From IMG/VR virus record IMGVR_UViG_2778260995_000005: a stretch of 7,186 nt of DNA; one strand, written 5' to 3'. A program made the translations under genes and the position numbers. Numbering within the stretch: the first letter of the stretch is position 1; every line of letters starts with the position of its first letter. This DNA is from a virus (Duplodnaviria > Heunggongvirae > Uroviricota > Caudoviricetes). The notes under the pieces were generated by a model, which saw nothing but the letters and a program-made list of their open reading frames with translations, ran no database searches and was not told the DNA's origin. Of this stretch, positions 607 through 7,186 are shown piece after piece.

Positions 607-2340
607 TTAAAGCGAGCGGATCCCATAGGACTCAATGTGGTCAGACAGCGTGTCTTCTTTCTCGTACAGCATGGCTCTGCCAACCGCCATAATCAGCGCA
701 ACTGCACCATCGATTTTGTTTTCCGCCTGCTCTTTGACGGGCTTCACCACATCATCGTTACCCGGAATGGTTTTGCCGACCACGTTGCCGATACACCAGG
801 TCATGATGGGATTGCCATCATGATGAAAGCGCCCCGATTCAATTGCCGCTTCCAGCTCTTTCATCGGGTCGGACATGTTGGTGTAGTTCTGAATGATAGT
901 GATGGGGTTCAGGTCTTCATCAGCAAGGTCATGTGAGAGCCCGGTCGCCCCGAAGGGGTCGATGGGTGACTCGCTGACCGGGCTGATTTTGTTCGCCGCT
1001 TTGGCCTCTTCGAGGATGTAGCGATAATCCACCTCCGCACCATCGGTAACGGTCAGAACGCCCATTTCCACCCATTTCTGAAAGCGTTCGGCTGTCCGGC
1101 GATCTTCATTTTTCTCGACGCTGTACACCGTGTCATACGGTACCCAGAAACGCGGGGCTACACTGTAGTAATGCGTTTTACCGTCAATCTCGCGGGTATA
1201 AAGTCGCGCCATGCTGTTCATATCCAGTTTACGCGCCAGGTCAAAGGCCAGAATGCACGGCTGCCCCTCGAACTGCTCAAGGGACAGTGATTTATCCTCG
1301 CAGCTCTGCCAGCTCACCAGGTTGAAATACGCCGAACGCGCCGACACCCAGATATTGAGGTGTTTTGTTTTAAAGACGTTTGCCAGACGGGCGTTATTTT
1401 TCGCACGCTGCTGCTGACTTAACAAAAATTCGCGATAAACCGACACGCCAATATTTGGATTGGCTTTTTCCAGCACCTGCGGGTCGGTCCAGTCGTCACC
1501 TTCATCAACGGTATAGATGATCCCGAACAGTTCATCGTTAGGCACCGAGCCGTTGAGCATCTCGATGACTTCCCGCCGTTTGTCGTAGCACGGCCCCTCA
1601 ATGTTGTACCCGGCGGTAGTGATAGCCCACATCAGTGGCTGACGTCGCGCCCCCATCCCGGTAAGCATCGTGGTGTAAAGCGCATCTGTGGCGTGCTCGT
1701 GATATTCATCCACCACCGCACAGTGGGGTGATGAACCATCACCGGGGTTACCGATCAGCGGTTCAAAACGCGCACCATCCTCCGGACGGTTCATGTTTGA
1801 GGCGTTAACCTCAATCCCGAACGCTTCCGTCAGCATGGGTGTGCGTTTACACATCAGTCTTGCCGGGCGAAAGACTTCCCATGCCTGTTTCTCTGTCGTG
1901 GCACCGGAATACACTTCCGCGCCGAACTCGTTATCACAGGCAAAACAATACAGGGCGACACCGGCAGAGATTGCCGATTTGCCGTTCTTACGGGGGATTT
2001 CGGTATACACCTCACGGAAGCGGCGCAGCCGGGAGCCTTTATTGACCCAGCCAAACGCGCAGCAGATCACAAAGAGCTGCCACGGCTCCAGCGTGATGGG
2101 CATCCTCTTAAATGCCCACTCACCCTTGGTGTGCGGCAACAGCTGAATAAATTTGGCGGCCCGTTCAGCCAGGTCCTTGTCGAAGCGGTAACGAAACGAC
2201 TTACTTTTTTCCGCCATCAGGTCATCAAGATGGCGCTGGCAGGCCTGAATCACAAACTGGCAGGCCACAATCTTTCCGCGCACGACATCACGGGCATACT
2301 GATTGGCAGCATTTACGTTGGGGTAAGATTTCCGGCTCAT
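607..2340 (-). CDS. terL: Terminase large subunit (HK97-like, Terminase_1 family)
   Basis: 577-aa ORF with a Walker-A-like motif ([10 protein letters not shown]) in the N-terminal ATPase region, and overall size and architecture typical of TerL. Its ATG overlaps the TerS stop as ATGA at 2340..2337. Confidence 0.95.
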
Positions 2341-2831
2341 GATTCGATGATTTTCAGAAACGGGTTAGTGGTTTTCTTCTGCCCCGCCAGGCCAATCAGA
2401 CGCTGACGGCTGCTGGGGTCGAGTCCGAGCATTGCCCCCGTGCTGCTCATCTCGGACTCCTGTTCTTTTTTGGCGGTCAGCTCCGGATTTTTGACCATGC
2501 CGCCCATTGCACCGGTGATGGTGTTGCCCTGTCTGGCAATATTTTTCACGGCACGTCGCCAGAACTCGTAGGCCACGCACCACCGCTCAAGCACCGCGAG
2601 GTCAGTCACGCACAGCAGGCCCTGACCGCAGAGTTCTTTAGTTGTCAGTTGCCACATGATCGTAGCGAGAGGGAGATCTTCTTCAGCGAACCACTCCGGT
2701 GGCTCAACACCTTTGATGGGCGTAAAAACAGGTTCATCTTTATTCAGGGCTCGCTTGCCGGGGTTTCCGGCCAGCGCCTTGCGCGCCGTTGGCTTGGGGC
2801 GACGCCCGGAACGCCCCGCCGTTCCAGCCAT
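2337..2831 (-). CDS. terS: Terminase small subunit (P27 family)
   Basis: N-terminus [34 protein letters not shown] resembles the P27-family TerS signature. Preferred start is ATG at 2831..2829 with AGGAG 8 nt upstream; the track's GTG at 2840 has no usable spacing to an SD. Translationally coupled to terL. Confidence 0.85.
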
Positions 2832-2861
2832 ATGCGGCACTCCTGGTTAAATTTCATTTTT

Positions 2862-2940
2862 CGCGGGTATAAAAAAACGATGGGGCGGGCAGTCCGGAAG
2901 ACGTCAGGTCACAGGGATTTGACCCGCCCCTCCCCTCTGG
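2862..2940. other. Candidate cos/packaging site: GC-rich inverted repeat with adjacent A-tract in the HNH-terS intergenic region
   Basis: Non-coding gap 2841..2956. It contains an 8-bp inverted repeat GGGGCGGG (2882..2889) and CCCGCCCC (2923..2930) flanking a 33-nt spacer with a GACGTC palindrome (2900..2905), plus an A7 tract at 2871..2877. In HK97-type phages cos lies between the HNH gene and terS. On the minus strand the same structure followed by a T-run could instead act as a terminator. Confidence 0.3.
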
Positions 2941-2956
2941 CAGTGGGAACTGGTTC

Positions 2957-3307
2957 TTACTTCAACCGTTCACGGGCCGTCTTCGCCTTATGACACGGCC
3001 AGCACAGGCTCTGCAGATTGCTGTCGGCATCAGTGCCGCCATGCGCTTTAGGGATGATGTGGTCAACGGTTTTCGCCTCACGTACCACACCACCACGCAG
3101 ACATAACTGACACAGTCCTTTGTCACGCTTGAGCACACGTTCACGGATAACATCCCATTTCGAACCATAACCGCGCTGGTGTCTGGACTGGCCCGGCTTG
3201 TATTGCTTCCAGCCTTCACTTTTGTGGCTTTCGCAATAGCCTGACGGGTCAGTTGTGGTATGGCGGCAGCCGCGAACACGGCAGGCTTTTGGGGTTCGTG
3301 GTGGCAT
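2957..3307 (-). CDS. HNH endonuclease (terminase-associated, HK97 gp74-like)
   Basis: Motifs CxxxGC...GYC near the N-terminus and CQLC...DHIIP...N...CWPCH at the C-terminus form a zinc-finger HNH fold. Preferred start is ATG at 3307..3305 (MPPRTPKACRVRGC...) with GGAG 5 nt upstream. The track's longer start at 3376 would read through the terminator hairpin and overlap the upstream gene's stop. Confidence 0.9.
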   Translation of the reverse strand: MPPRTPKACRVRGCRHTTTDPSGYCESHKSEGWKQYKPGQSRHQRGYGSKWDVIRERVLKRDKGLCQLCLRGGVVREAKTVDHIIPKAHGGTDADSNLQSLCWPCHKAKTARERLK

Positions 3308-3316
3308 GCTGGCTCC

Positions 3317-3341
3317 AATAAAAAGCCCCGCGACGCGAGGC
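3317..3341 (-). terminator. Rho-independent terminator downstream of the 67-aa membrane protein gene
   Basis: Minus-strand RNA reads GCCUCGC-GUC-GCGGGGC followed by UUUUUAUU. That is a 7-bp GC-rich stem with one G-U pair, a 3-nt loop and a U-run, about 30 nt after the stop at 3373. Confidence 0.55.
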
Positions 3342-3372
3342 TTAGACAGAAAAAACACCGGATAAGATCTGG

Positions 3373-3576
3373 TCATTCTTCCTTTTTAATAATGACTTCT
3401 CGAGGGCGCAATTGTTGGATAGCACGACAAATACAATATGGAATAACTGCCCATGCTACTCCCATTGCTGCACCTGCAGCCTGTTGTGGAGCACTCTGAG
3501 CACCGAAAACCCCGAGGATTCCTTCAATAAATCCAATAGCACTACACAAAAGACTGATGACCCAGAGAATTTTCAT
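3373..3576 (-). CDS. Hypothetical small membrane protein (67 aa, two predicted TM helices, glycine-zipper-like); moron
   Basis: ATG at 3576..3574 with AAGGAG 9 nt upstream. Sequence MKILWVISLLCSAIGFIEGILGVFGAQSAPQQAAGAAMGVAWAVIPYCICRAIQQLRPREVIIKKEE has two hydrophobic segments, a short polar linker and a charged C-terminus. GC is visibly lower than the flanking terminase and lysis genes. Preceded by a 117-bp AT-rich intergenic region and followed by an intrinsic terminator. Confidence 0.6.
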   Translation of the reverse strand: MKILWVISLLCSAIGFIEGILGVFGAQSAPQQAAGAAMGVAWAVIPYCICRAIQQLRPREVIIKKEE

Positions 3577-3693
3577 AAACCCAAACTCCTTTTAAATAAA
3601 CACATTACTAGGATAATTCTCATAAAATGTTAGTAAAGTATTTTCAGGAAAATAGCGTATCACTGCCTATTTTTGACACTGATGCTGGGATAA

Positions 3694-4068
3694 TTATTCC
3701 GATCGCTGGAGTTGCTCATGATGATACAGAGCGAGAATCAGGTCATAAGACCCTTGCCTGTCTTTGTAACCAGTTTTATCAACCAATTCAGCTTTACTGA
3801 TTCCGGGTAAATCAAGAATCAGATTCGCAACTTCAATTGCCCTTTGGTACAACTTACCGCCTTTTTTCTCCCCATGCAGTGGTTTTACATTCTTCAGGTA
3901 ACCGCTATCCGCCAGGGCGAGAAATGTTGCCCTTGGGCATATCTTCTTTCTTGACGATTCGCTTTCTGTAACCTCTGCGATAGCTGCATCCCATGCATCA
4001 CGAGGAGTCATTGAGCTATCAGCCACCAAATGATAAGCGATTAAAGCAACGTGAGCGTATTGAGACAT
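3694..4068 (-). CDS. Hypothetical soluble protein (~124 aa; 141 aa if the GTG at 4119 is used), unknown function
   Basis: ORF on the late-operon strand immediately downstream of Rz. Preferred start is ATG at 4068..4066 with GGAAG about 5 nt upstream; the GTG at 4119 overlaps Rz by 13 nt and lacks a good SD. No TM segment and no family I can assign. Lower GC than neighbours. Confidence 0.6.
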   Translation of the reverse strand: MSQYAHVALIAYHLVADSSMTPRDAWDAAIAEVTESESSRKKICPRATFLALADSGYLKNVKPLHGEKKGGKLYQRAIEVANLILDLPGISKAELVDKTGYKDRQGSYDLILALYHHEQLQRSE

Positions 4069-4106
4069 AATGCTTCCATATACAAAAATCTTATGATAAG
4101 ACTTTT

Positions 4107-4550
4107 CTAATATGAACACTGTGATCTCACATATTCTTGCAGGCCATTCAATTGGTTAGTTATGGTTTCGATGCGCTCTCTGAGAACGAAATAATCCCGT
4201 TGAGCGGTGTCAGTAAGTCTGGGGCTGGAAGCATCATCCACGCCGGAGGCGGCGGTGGTTTTATGCTTGTCCGGACAGACTGCTTTGACGTGCAGCCACT
4301 TACGACCAGCAGAAACATCAGCACGAAGACTTTCGATAGTCGCGTTAGCATCAGCAAGCTCCTTTGTGTATCTGGCGTCGAGTTCAGCTACATCATGTTG
4401 ACGCTTCTGCATGTCAGCGATGATGGATGTGGCTTTGTCGCGCTGTTCTTTGTAGGTCATGGCGTTATCACGGTAATGATTAACAGCCCATGACAGGCAG
4501 ACGATGATGCTGATAACCAGAGCGGAGATAATCGCGGTTACTCTACTCAT
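4107..4550 (-). CDS. Rz: Rz i-spanin (inner-membrane spanin subunit)
   Basis: [30 protein letters not shown]... closely resembles lambda/phage-21 Rz: N-terminal TM, coiled-coil periplasmic domain. ATG at 4550..4548 overlaps the endolysin stop as ATGA. The track's longer start at 4562 is rejected. Confidence 0.9.
4160..4351 (-). CDS. Rz1: Rz1 o-spanin (outer-membrane lipoprotein), embedded in Rz in the +1 frame
   Basis: [25 protein letters not shown]...KPPPPPAW...PLNGIIS has a lipoprotein signal with lipobox VVSGC and the proline-rich mature region typical of lambda Rz1. ATG at 4351..4349 with AGGAG 7 nt upstream; the track used a TTG two codons earlier. Lies entirely within Rz. Confidence 0.85.
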
Positions 4551-5044
4551 TGTTGCCCCCACAAACAGACTTCACGCTCAATCTCACGGCGAGTCATCAG
4601 CCCTTTCCATTGCTTACCGCCAGCGTATGTCCAGCGCCGTAGCTGATCACATGCGCCTTTGATATCGCCCTGGTTTATTTTGCGAAGAAGTGTCGATGTT
4701 CTGAAATTTCCAGCACCAACGTTGTAAACGAACGAGTAAAGAGCGCCGCGCGTTGTTTCCGGTATATCGACTTTGATGTACGGGTTAATTTGTCTGGCGA
4801 CAGTGGCAAGGTCTTTATTCAGGAGGGCTTTGCATTCTGCTTCGGTATACGTTTTACCGAGCATAATGTCTTTTCCGGTATGCCCGTAACATACAGTCCA
4901 TACACCAACGATATCTTTATATGGTATGTAGCTGACGCCTTCCAGACCATCGTTACCACTTGGGCCAGTGATTAACACAGATGCTATAGCAATAGCCCCG
5001 CCACCAATAGCCGCAGCAACGGCTTTTCGTAATGATGGAGGCAT
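4547..5044 (-). CDS. R: SAR endolysin (phage-21 R21-type lysozyme)
   Basis: N-terminal signal-anchor-release domain [28 protein letters not shown] followed by a T4-lysozyme-like catalytic region (LEG...KD...T). Near-identical by recall to phage 21 R21. Start overlaps the pinholin stop (TAATG). Confidence 0.95.
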
Positions 5045-5259
5045 TATTCACCTCTCGCAGCCTTGCGCTTATCTTCTTTAATCTTGAAATAAAGGTTTGT
5101 CAGGTACGTCAGCAGGCCAAATACCAGGCTACCCAGCACACCTATTGCTGCCCACTGTGAGGGCGTGACTTTATCGAGCAGCTGTAAAAACCAGTAGCCA
5201 GCACTGCCTGCGGAGGTGCCGTAGGCAATGCCCGTTGTTAACTTATCCATAGATTTCAT
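5044..5259 (-). CDS. S: Pinholin (phage-21 S21-type, class II holin) with dual-start motif
   Basis: [71 protein letters not shown] matches S21 by recall. Met1-Lys-Ser-Met4 gives the antiholin/holin dual starts. Two TMDs, the first glycine/alanine-rich and SAR-like. GGAGG 7 nt upstream of ATG at 5259. Confidence 0.95.
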
Positions 5260-5354
5260 AGCCTCACCTCCGCAAATAACGGATGGTGTACACGGTTCGG
5301 AACGAAGAGGAAAGGTATAGAAGTTACATTAGCGTAAGGCTTGAACATCTATTC

Positions 5355-5386
5355 AAAAAGAAAAACGCCAGCGATTATTCTGGCGT
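5355..5386 (-). terminator. Rho-independent terminator between the AraC-family gene and the lysis cassette
   Basis: Minus-strand RNA reads ACGCCAG-AAUAAUCG-CUGGCGU followed by UUUUCUUUUU: 7-bp stem, 8-nt loop, U-rich tail. It lies about 60 nt after the AraC-family stop and about 95 nt upstream of the pinholin ATG. Confidence 0.5.
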
Positions 5387-5447
5387 AGCTGAAAGCATCA
5401 TACAATTATCAAATACGAAAATTACAAAATCATTAAAACGCATCACG

Positions 5448-6179
5448 TTACATCATGTCTTTTTCTAAAAAAAATCTTGATGAATATTGATGGGGAGGAA
5501 CACCAAAATATCTTCTGAAAACACTCACAAAATATGACGTGTTTTCATAACCGCATATCTCAGCAACTTTTCCAACAGAATATAAATTGTAGCTTAATAA
5601 CCTTTCCGCCATCACCATTCGCTCTTCAAGAATTAACTTACTAAATGATAAGCCTTCGTGCTTTAATTTTCTTTTTAACAGACTTTCACTCAGATACAGT
5701 CTTGAAGATATATCACAAAGTCTCCATGCTGCAGATATATCCGTGTGAATAATAGCCTTAACTTTACTTCCTAAACTATTAAGACATCCAAATAAAAAAC
5801 TTTGCACTATTTTCTCTGAAGATAAGATAGCAAGACATGCAAGTGATATTTGATTTCTAACAAAATCCACAGTTCTGCCATCACAATTCAAGCATGCAAT
5901 CAAGTTCTTTAACAATGAAAAATCTTCACATTCCACCATCAAGTATGCCGGATAAAACCTTCTTACAGAAAAAGGTGAGAGTGTGTTGCTTTTAAAGAAA
6001 TCATTAACTGTTTTCTCTTCAACATCTATGATCATTACATGATCTATATTTGATGAAAAAAAATCTTTTAAATTGTAATCAATGAGAACAGCACTTCCTT
6101 TTTTAAACAAAATATCTTCTTTACCAATTCGGACATCAAACGAGTTCAACACCAAAATGATAGAACATATGTATGGCAT
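5448..6179 (-). CDS. AraC/XylS-family transcriptional regulator (AppY/PatE-like), AT-rich
   Basis: C-terminal paired HTH region (WRLCDISSRLYLSESLLKRKLKHEGLSFSKLILEERMVMAERLL...VGKVAEICGYENTSYFVSVFRRYFGVPPHQY) is typical of AraC family. N-terminus MPYICSIILVLNSFDV...ILFKKGSAVLI resembles AppY-like regulators by recall. Preferred start is ATG at 6179..6177 with AGGTGG 5 nt upstream; the track used a GTG at 6188. Markedly AT-rich coding sequence. Confidence 0.85.
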   Translation of the reverse strand: MPYICSIILVLNSFDVRIGKEDILFKKGSAVLIDYNLKDFFSSNIDHVMIIDVEEKTVNDFFKSNTLSPFSVRRFYPAYLMVECEDFSLLKNLIACLNCDGRTVDFVRNQISLACLAILSSEKIVQSFLFGCLNSLGSKVKAIIHTDISAAWRLCDISSRLYLSESLLKRKLKHEGLSFSKLILEERMVMAERLLSYNLYSVGKVAEICGYENTSYFVSVFRRYFGVPPHQYSSRFFLEKDMM

Positions 6180-6487
6180 ATTATCCACCTGATATCATTG
6201 GGGTTACACCAGGTAAGTATAGGTGGAAAATCAATATTCGCCAGTTCAACAATAAGGAAAATTTCATTGCATCACAAGTATAAAATTATGTATTTAACTC
6301 ACAAAGACAAATTATTAAACCAATCTGTTATATTATATATAGCTGCGTGGAATCATAATATTATATATTTTGACTGGCATGTTTACCAACTTTAAGTTGC
6401 ATCTCAATTGTTTCTTCAGCGTAAACAGAGTTTTTATACAAACTGACACTCTGGGTATCATAGTGTAGTTTTTACGATTGTAAATAT

Positions 6488-6518
6488 CCTGCATGCAGGA
6501 ACTCATCCTTTTGGATGA
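6488..6518 (-). terminator. Possible terminator/operator hairpins downstream of the DUF1722-like gene
   Basis: Two adjacent inverted repeats just after the stop at 6531: TCATCC-TTTT-GGATGA (6503..6518) and the 12-bp perfect palindrome CCTGCATGCAGG (6488..6499), followed on the minus strand by an AT-rich stretch. Short stems, so weak as a terminator; the palindrome could be a protein-binding site. Confidence 0.3.
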
Positions 6519-6530
6519 TATCGCATACAA

Positions 6531-7186
6531 TTAATTTACCATCAGTCTTAGAGCCAGTTCGTCCGGATAGGGATCGAAGTAATTCTGTGTAAGCAAGTAA
6601 TCATTAGGATACTCACCCAGATAATGCTTCAGCAGAGTCAACGGCGCAAGAAGAGGTAATGTGCCAGAACGATAGTTAAGTATAACCTCGCTCAACTCTT
6701 TACGCTGGCGTGTACTTAAGTAGTTACTAAAATACCCCTGTATATGCATCAGCACATTCGTGTGATTTTTACGTGATGCAGGTTTTCTGAGAATCGCCAT
6801 CAGCTTATCACGATACACCTCAAAGTATGATTCAAGGTCCGCCCACTCGTGTATTGCAGCCACAAATGGTCCCATATCTTTATAGCCTGCCTGACTATGC
6901 GCCAACAACTGAAGCTTATAACGACTATGAAAAGCTAATAACTCTCTTCTTGATAATTTCTCCTTGTAAAGGTGATTGAGCTCATGCAAAGCAAAAACTC
7001 TTTCAACAAAATTCTCACGAAGCACTGGATCATGTAATCGCCCATCCTCTTCAACCGGTAGCCAGGAAAACTTTTCCATCAAAGTACTCGTAAATAGTCC
7101 CACTCCATCGTAAGCGTAAACTGACCGCCGTATGTAGCCATCAGACGAGAATTGGTAACTTAGACGCCCATCTGATATAGACGGAC
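6531..7186 (-). CDS. DUF1722 (YbgA-like) domain protein, 5'-truncated by the window edge; possibly a DUF523-DUF1722 fusion
   Basis: The minus-strand frame is open from the window end (7186) to the stop at 6531..6533; the track's GTG start at 7103 is internal. The C-terminal region (LLAFHSRYKLQLLAHSQAGYKDMGPFVAAIHEW...YLLTQNYFDPYPDELALRLMVN) matches my recollection of the DUF1722/YbgA family. Moderately AT-rich. Confidence 0.55.
   Translation of the reverse strand, partial: PSISDGRLSYQFSSDGYIRRSVYAYDGVGLFTSTLMEKFSWLPVEEDGRLHDPVLRENFVERVFALHELNHLYKEKLSRRELLAFHSRYKLQLLAHSQAGYKDMGPFVAAIHEWADLESYFEVYRDKLMAILRKPASRKNHTNVLMHIQGYFSNYLSTRQRKELSEVILNYRSGTLPLLAPLTLLKHYLGEYPNDYLLTQNYFDPYPDELALRLMVN

Follow-up and report, generated by a model that had tools for sequence, protein, structure and literature searches.

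What does a strongly AT-rich gene of the AraC family do for a lambdoid prophage, or for its host, when it lies directly ahead of the phage lysis genes? The question is raised by a 7,186-nucleotide stretch of DNA from a virus of the class Caudoviricetes (IMG/VR record IMGVR_UViG_2778260995_000005; this whole stretch is referred to below as the window), which carries such a gene at positions 5448-6179. The original prediction, made from the letters alone, took the gene for a prophage-borne, AppY/PatE-like regulator with translation and termination signals of its own, and proposed that it would act as a lysogenic-conversion regulator, a role to which homology points. Our analysis finds the observation to be real and supports this interpretation in every part that could be checked. 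The regulator is an unstudied relative of the known prophage regulators PatE, PsrA/B and AppY and not a new type of system. We consider it reasonably probable that it is a trans-acting, PatE-type activator encoded by a phage moron, with the GadE and hdeAB acid-resistance regulon as its probable target.

The regulator gene

The open reading frame (ORF) lies on the minus strand, a detail that had not been given before, and extends from an ATG at 6179-6177 through 243 codons to a TAA at 5450-5448. The coordinates first proposed were exact and correspond to the coding sequence including its stop codon. At the base composition of the gene, a run of 243 sense codons would arise by chance with a probability of about 7e-10, and the same 732-bp version is called by the NCBI Prokaryotic Genome Annotation Pipeline (PGAP) in near-identical genomes. 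An alternative GTG start at 6188 falls inside the Shine-Dalgarno (SD) sequence. The gene is indeed strongly AT-rich, with a G+C (GC) content of 31.7%, and the spacer upstream of it is similar in composition; the phage backbone ranges from 48 to 58% (48-50% in the lysis genes, 54-58% in the terminase genes). The gene and the signals in its vicinity are as follows.

5448-6179, minus strand: coding sequence of the AraC/XylS-family regulator (PatE/Psr/AppY clade), 243 amino acids, 732 bp
6056-6063, minus strand: run of eight T residues (T8) in codons 39-42, as present in the in-frame copy of the window
6180-6530, minus strand: AT-rich non-coding upstream spacer, 351 bp, 31.9% GC
6185-6190, minus strand: SD sequence AGGTGG, 5 nt before the ATG, read from the sequence
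6216-6244, minus strand: proximal promoter-like element with -10 TATACT (6221-6216), -35 CTGGCG (6244-6239) and a 17-nt spacer
6457-6484, minus strand: distal promoter-like site, TTTACA-16 nt-TATGAT, 10/12 consensus matches
5355-5386, minus strand: intrinsic terminator, ACGCCAG-loop-CTGGCGT followed by a T-run, between the regulator and holin genes

Family and structure of the product

Assignment to the AraC family is supported by two Pfam models that match residues 161-237 above their cutoffs, HTH_18 with 54.8 bits (cutoff 33.6) and HTH_AraC with 44.1 bits (cutoff 26.6). The protein has both hallmarks of the AraC/XylS group, namely a double helix-turn-helix (HTH) DNA-binding domain at the C-terminus (residues ~136-238), as seen with Pfam, and an N-terminal companion domain (residues ~1-135) that is rich in beta-strands and probably regulatory, as seen in an AlphaFold2 model compared by Foldseek. 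Residues 1-135 of this model (mean predicted local distance difference test score, pLDDT, 81; predicted template modelling score, pTM, 0.60) form six beta-strands together with helices. The model also has linker helices and, in its DNA-binding domain, seven helices. In a Foldseek search of the PDB, the full-length structures of CsvR, Rns and ToxT ranked first (E 2e-11 to 3e-8, identity 17-20%), at a TM-score of ~0.44 in which the orientation of the two domains is not superposed. The DNA-binding domain of GadX (3mkl) superposes on the C-terminal half with a TM-score of 0.88-0.92 at 40% identity, and the DNA-binding domains of MarA (1bl0/1xs9) were matched as well. A phmmer search of PDB sequences agrees, with ToxT aligned over residues 22-233.

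Comparison with named relatives places the protein in the PatE/Psr/AppY group. Identities are taken from full-length alignments and the locus tags of Psr and PatE from reviews. The gene used as PsrB is the AraC gene in the Q-S slot of island OI-57 of strain EDL933, that is, the interval between the Q antiterminator and holin (S) genes; it was chosen by its position and not from a named record, and the choice is supported by its distribution in Shiga toxin-producing E. coli (STEC) and by its two copies per genome. This presumed PsrB stands for the Psr type in a comparison that excludes PsrA.

PatE (z0321, AraC gene of CP-933H/OI-8 in EDL933): 52% identity overall, 40% in the N-terminal domain, 70% in the DNA-binding domain
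Presumed PsrB (z2104): 39% overall, 27% N-terminal, 54% DNA-binding
GadW: 33% overall, 24% N-terminal, 46% DNA-binding
YdeO: 31% overall, 22% N-terminal, 43% DNA-binding
AppY: 30% overall, 23% N-terminal, 40% DNA-binding
GadX: 25% overall, 14% N-terminal, 40% DNA-binding
EnvY: 24% overall, 13% N-terminal, 40% DNA-binding
YbcM: 16% overall, 10% N-terminal, 23% DNA-binding

The likeness to AppY and PatE that had been proposed is therefore borne out by these identities, with PatE as the closest characterised relative, followed by the presumed PsrB and, at a greater distance, AppY. The first recognition helix, SESLLKRKLK, is the same in the window protein and in PatE. Lysine 169 aligns with K170 of AppY, a residue required for DNA binding (PMC10057817). 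Orthology to a chromosomal core regulator, which would have spoken against the original prediction, was not found: identity to GadW, GadX and YdeO is only 25-33%, and the window protein is not an ortholog of such a regulator because its scores are far under the NCBIfam equivalog cutoffs. The top NCBIfam model, YdeO (NF007407), matches over the full length with 128.4 bits against a cutoff of 348, and the GadX model (NF007432) matches residues 104-238 only, with 85.4 bits against 500.

The full-length family appears narrow, since a phmmer search of 1.8 billion cluster representatives yielded only 10 at E <=1e-30, the best of which beyond the protein's own cluster is 41% identical. Only one representative of the clusters formed at 50% identity lies above 41% (P0013), and PatE presumably falls in the same 50% cluster as the window protein. 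PHROG 1450, which is labelled as of unknown function, matches over the full length (E 5e-107). True PatE-type proteins (P0017 and PhiR70_1) group separately from the window protein, which by sequence comparison looks like a paralogous subtype and not an ortholog of PatE. We find the presumed Psr gene in 726 genomes, most of them STEC, at a median of two copies; this distribution and copy number agree with the PsrA/PsrB pair described in the literature and indicate that the window protein is of a different subtype from Psr as well. For PsrA itself (z1789), no AraC gene is annotated in CP-933N/Sp6 of strain Sakai or of re-sequenced EDL933, nor was one found there by a degenerate motif search. 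The gap between Q and TerB in these two versions of CP-933N/Sp6 is ~240 bp, though reviews place psrA in OI-50; the mismatch may be due to assembly differences from the original EDL933 sequence.

Genomic position and distribution

All phage genes of the window are encoded on the minus strand, in the order YbgA remnant, regulator, holin, lysozyme and Rz, followed by accessory ORFs and the terminases. The original description of the regulator as next to the lysis cassette is right as to adjacency and needs one correction, in that, following the direction of late transcription, the regulator comes before the cassette, with 188 bp between it and the start of the holin gene. The neighbouring features on both sides are listed below.

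5044-5259, minus strand: holin gene of the P21 S/EssD type, the first gene of the lysis cassette
4547-5044, minus strand: lysozyme gene, RrrD-like
4107-4562, minus strand: Rz spanin gene
4160-4357, minus strand: 65-codon ORF nested in Rz at the site expected for Rz1, a candidate Rz1 by position
6531-7109, minus strand: 3' remnant of a YbgA-family gene (DUF1722 part), truncated by an insertion sequence (IS)
7110-7186, plus strand: left end of an IS66-family (ISEc23-like) element

Related genomes and deposited phages confirm that the gene is prophage-borne. In strain C4 it is part of a complete lambdoid prophage integrated beside ybhC, where the order is Q antiterminator, lipocalin (opposite strand), YbgA-family gene (319 amino acids), regulator, essD, rrrD and Rz, and then, further on, HNH endonuclease, TerS and TerL. 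The order Q-lipocalin-YbgA-AraC-holin recurs in the deposited phage genomes IdasGreatGrand (regulator protein 98.4% identical by tblastn) and Lambda_2G7a (82%). A variant with 84% identity has the Q-lipocalin-YbgA-AraC unit on a backbone with another lysis cassette, which consists of DUF1327, lysozyme, DUF2514 and cold-shock-domain genes. The three closest variants (99%, 84% and 82% protein identity) are thus always accompanied by a Blc-like lipocalin gene and a YbgA-family gene, the latter combining a DUF523 (2-thiouracil-desulfurase-like) and a DUF1722 domain. The coordinates of the cassette are 22424-22948 and 21272-22231 in the C4 locus, and 1515-3191 and 1927-3603 in two others (L012 and L017). 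Relatives at 64% and 54% identity lie directly between Q and, where the contig reaches that far, the holin gene, with neither a lipocalin nor a YbgA gene, and in DLP12 of E. coli K-12 the quuD-essD slot is occupied by nmpC.

Judged from its sequence context, then, the regulator is in the classic Q-S accessory, or moron, position. A moron, in the sense of Hendrix and colleagues, is an accessory gene unit between phage genes. Several features of such units are present here: an extra gene in a slot that is filled differently in relatives (nmpC in DLP12, an AraC gene alone elsewhere), a composition unlike that of the backbone, and a downstream terminator of its own that is conserved in the 82% variant. 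A further feature of morons is a promoter of their own that is active in the lysogen; candidates for it here are the conserved TATACT -10 with a weak -35 and the conserved distal site, in a region where consensus matches occur at the chance rate.

The locus is common. Of 5426 complete E. coli genomes, 1086 have a match to the 1271-bp stretch comprising the gene and its flanks (5260-6530), at >=99% identity in 588 and at 80-90% in 432, and the window-type gene was found in strains not labelled as STEC, from humans, animals and water. The early region of the C4 prophage carries a PerC-family regulator (26070-26564 of the C4 locus), which recalls the reported association of psr genes with Pch/PerC regulators in prophages of enterohaemorrhagic E. 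coli (EHEC). No effector genes were present in the 41 kb of the C4 prophage locus that were inspected.

The upstream end of the window has been rearranged. Matches to the whole window stop at 7109 in every complete genome, and the 7109/7110 junction was found in none of the collection. From there on, the remaining 77 bases of the window belong to the end of a multi-copy IS66-family element, which has cut off the DUF523 half of the YbgA-family gene; the intact gene encodes 319 amino acids with DUF523 and DUF1722. At the other end of the lysis cassette, Rz is followed by a DUF6979 gene, a small ORF, and the genes for an HNH endonuclease, a P27-type small terminase and the large terminase. The two accessory ORFs between Rz and the HNH endonuclease gene (3373-3576 and 3694-4119, minus strand) are located in a stretch of 39-45% GC; the 67-amino-acid ORF matches PHROG 12304 and the DUF6979 protein PHROG 5039, neither with an assigned function.

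Signals around the gene

The translation and termination signals that had been called from the letters both hold up. AGGTGG is kept as the SD sequence in variants with 54-99% protein identity, and the PatE gene has GGGGGG at this place. Downstream, the hairpin that precedes the holin gene has a 7-bp stem with five GC pairs (centroid fold -11.3 kcal/mol); with its T-run it spans 5386-5365, and both are unchanged in phage Lambda_2G7a, despite only 82% protein identity; one terminator-like site would be expected by chance in the region scanned (mean of 1.0 in shuffled sequences).

A TATACTT element 42 nt before the ATG is invariant across six aligned upstream regions, that of PatE included, which span 52-99% protein identity. 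The -35 hexamer of the window, CTGGCG, is weak with three of six positions matching; its PatE counterpart is TTGGCA, and TGG is found at the -35 position, 17 nt upstream of TATACTT, in the aligned upstream regions of the family. We infer that the TATACT/CTGGCG element is a candidate promoter. The distal TTTACA/TATGAT site is located within a block conserved in phage Lambda_2G7a, and for both promoter-like sites it is conservation that argues for a function.

Further elements were considered and set aside. The sequence UCCACCU (6227-6221, minus strand) is perfectly complementary to the SD region AGGUGGA (6184-6190), which lies 30 nt downstream of it, and this pairing is present in the minimum-free-energy folds of the window gene and of the 82% variant, in which both arms are kept and the loop differs. 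We do not regard this anti-SD hairpin as an established element, given folding energies no better than those of shuffled sequence (z-scores of -0.95 and -1.19) and the loss of the 5' arm from the 64% variant. Moreover, this arm would lie outside the transcript of the proximal promoter, should that promoter be real. A 7/8 match to the AppY motif ATGSCWGM (ATGCCAGT; motif from PMC10057817) that overlaps a predicted -35 in the upstream spacer was judged to be a chance occurrence, as it is not conserved in the 82% variant. A scan of the window with Rfam returned no RNA families.

Homopolymer alleles

In the window the gene has its full length and an undisturbed reading frame, with an intact T8 tract in codons 39-42, and is thus not a pseudogene, a state that would have counted against the original prediction. 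The tract differs among the 582 complete genomes that carry the window-type allele: 245 have exactly T8, 234 exactly T7 and none exactly T9. The T7 form, found in ~40% of allele carriers (for example at 2858-3588 of locus L014 and 13926-14656 of locus L016), splits the gene into ORFs of 44 and 195 amino acids and is flagged by PGAP as a frameshift. The T7 example that we inspected belongs to a degraded prophage at the lambda attachment site. Of 23 sampled T7 rows, about 14 have the gene on the minus strand at 3.13-3.29 Mb in a chromosome of 4.67-4.85 Mb, and because most of the sampled T7 genomes are syntenic in this way, the allele looks mainly clonal in sequence comparisons and not phase-variable. 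In the 82% variant, the T tract is interrupted. A second T8 homopolymer is located at 5467-5474 (nucleotides 706-713 of the gene), where a slip would alter only the last ~8 residues.

Proposed mechanism

We propose that the gene is a self-contained, horizontally acquired phage moron in the Q-S slot of a lambdoid prophage, and that its product would function as a two-domain AraC/XylS activator of the PatE/Psr/AppY/YdeO/GadW clade. In the lysogen, transcription would start from the gene's own promoter, for which the TATACT -10 element 42 nt upstream of the ATG is the best candidate. The strength of this promoter is probably low, and H-NS probably silences the locus, given its GC content of 32%. 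Once made, the protein would act in trans on host promoters. Its likeliest targets, as for PatE, PsrB and AppY, would be the gadE and hdeAB promoters of the glutamate-dependent acid-resistance regulon, and the result would be a higher acid tolerance. These three regulators activate gadE and hdeA and raise acid resistance (PMC10877973; PMC10057817). The conserved terminator would halt moron transcripts before they reach the holin gene, and could in this way insulate the holin gene in the lysogen.

Upon prophage induction, Q-modified RNA polymerase arriving from upstream would read through the regulator gene and its terminator into the lysis genes. Read-through of terminators by Q-modified polymerase is established lambda biology. 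It had also been suggested that the gene, being co-oriented with the late operon, could gain expression during induction. The co-orientation is confirmed; the boost to expression is weakened in this particular genome because an IS66-family element is located between the Q region and the regulator.

Weighing the explanations

Several points weigh against a PatE-type activator of host acid resistance. The IS66 element just mentioned intervenes between Q and the regulator in this window. The T7 frameshift occurs in 234 of the 582 genomes that carry the allele, which disfavours a strong general selective benefit and implies that the regulator is dispensable in at least one large lineage. In the protein, the second recognition helix differs from that of PatE at several positions, and the two N-terminal regulatory domains share only 40% identity, so that the signal input and the partners of the two proteins may differ. 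Consensus promoter matches occur at the chance rate in the AT-rich region (7 found, 6.0 expected), and a search of the literature for this regulator subfamily found zero papers.

It is conceivable that the regulator instead acts locally on the adjacent Blc-like lipocalin and YbgA genes, perhaps in response to lipids or fatty acids, and that global host regulons are not its main target. AraC-family regulators often adjoin their targets. The three closest variants always lie within the Q-lipocalin-YbgA-AraC unit, even on different phage backbones, and the predicted fold matches Rns, CsvR and ToxT, of which the Rns and ToxT entries are titled as having decanoic acid or an unsaturated fatty acid bound. 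We nevertheless regard local regulation as unlikely, since the relatives at 64% and 54% identity, as well as PatE (52%) and Psr (39%), have no lipocalin or YbgA neighbour, since the characterised relatives all act in trans on host genes (PMC10877973, PMC10057817), and since the YbgA gene of the window has been destroyed by the IS while the regulator is intact. Nor do we think it probable that the gene is silent and decaying cargo, an H-NS-silenced hitch-hiker kept by its linkage to Q and the lysis module. The abundance of the T7 frameshift, its presence within a degraded prophage at the lambda attachment site, the IS hit in the neighbouring gene of the window and the very AT-rich composition of the regulator would all be expected of such cargo. 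Against this, 245 genomes keep the exact in-frame T8, deposited phage genomes carry an intact gene, and the T7 allele looks largely clonal. Moreover, full length and DNA-contact residues are conserved in variants that have diverged to 82%, 64% and 52% identity, which implies purifying selection.

The location of the gene inside the late transcription unit, co-oriented with and directly upstream of the holin gene, might alternatively suggest a regulator of the phage life cycle (lysis timing, late transcription or superinfection exclusion) with no part in host physiology. This is highly improbable, considering the conserved terminator that separates the regulator from the holin gene, a composition foreign to the phage backbone, and homologs that regulate host genes. 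Related lambdoid phages and DLP12 carry other cargo (nmpC in the latter) in the slot, which places the regulator outside the core lysis programme. Just as remote is the chance that T8 serves as a slipped-strand switch that turns a phase-variable regulator on and off. T8 and T7 are nearly equal in number in complete genomes (245 and 234) and the frameshift falls exactly within the homopolymer; on the other hand, exact T9 genomes are absent from this set, T7 genomes look largely clonal and syntenic, and the tract is interrupted in the 82% variant. Eight T residues are also short for high-frequency switching. A very unlikely, if slightly less remote, idea is that the lipocalin, YbgA and AraC genes, the last of these with its predicted CsvR/Rns/ToxT fold, form a lipid-sensing module delivered by phages. 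In this view a fatty acid or a lysophospholipid would be bound in the N-terminal pocket of the regulator, which would couple lipid cues of the gut to acid-resistance or colonisation regulons in commensal and extraintestinal pathogenic E. coli (ExPEC), with T8 providing heritable on/off variation.

Implications

Prophage-encoded AraC regulators such as AppY, PatE and PsrA/B represent the best-documented cases in which phages rewire acid resistance, motility, biofilm formation and type III secretion in E. coli. Work to date has concerned such regulators from K-12 and EHEC, and the subtype in the window is unstudied. About 20% of the complete E. coli genomes have a match to the DNA of the locus, the isolates being of human, animal or environmental origin, and the presence of the gene in deposited phage genomes suggests that it may still be mobile. 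Should the regulator activate the GadE regulon in the manner of PatE, strains outside the EHEC lineage would have in it a common and transferable means of modifying their survival in gastric acid. Strains for a comparison are available from nature, with the allele in frame (T8) or frameshifted (T7). The regulator is widespread and experimentally tractable, even if unsurprising to specialists.

Comparison with known systems

The closest known system is PatE (z0321), encoded on CP-933H/OI-8 of EHEC O157:H7 EDL933. Like the window gene, patE is prophage-borne and preceded by a TATACTT element; the two differ in position, since PatE-type genes follow the tail-fibre genes at the far end of the phage genome and are not in the Q-S slot. 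PatE activates gadE, gadBC and hdeAB and raises acid resistance, and PatE and PsrB bind hdeA at positions -132 to -45 and activate gadE, hdeAB and AR2 genes (PMC10877973). PsrA and PsrB (z1789 and z2104) are likewise AraC-like proteins encoded on lambdoid prophages, in this case effector-carrying prophages of EHEC, and the presumed psrB shares with the window gene its place in the Q-to-holin interval. The Psr type is distinguished by its 39% identity and by its occurrence mainly in STEC at a median of two copies, whereas the window type is found in strains not labelled as STEC. PsrA and PsrB act through GadE and YhiF, and on hdeA (PMC10877973, PMC8565820), and the psr genes are on prophages and are associated with type III effector loci and with Pch/PerC regulators (Tree et al. 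2011, as summarised in PMC10877973).

AppY of DLP12 in E. coli K-12 is also a prophage-encoded AraC/XylS protein of similar length, with K170 corresponding to K169 of the window protein. It differs in its lower identity (30%) and in the location of its gene at the prophage end beside ompT and not in the Q-S slot. AppY directly activates gadE, gadY and nhaR (PMC10057817). YdeO, GadW and GadX align with the window protein over its full length at 31%, 33% and 25% identity, respectively; these three acid-resistance regulators are chromosomal, whereas the window gene is part of a prophage and lies neither in the acid fitness island nor at the ydeO locus. Finally, the virulence regulators Rns, CsvR and ToxT, AraC proteins for which full-length structures are available, provide the best match to the predicted two-domain architecture at an identity of only 17-20%.

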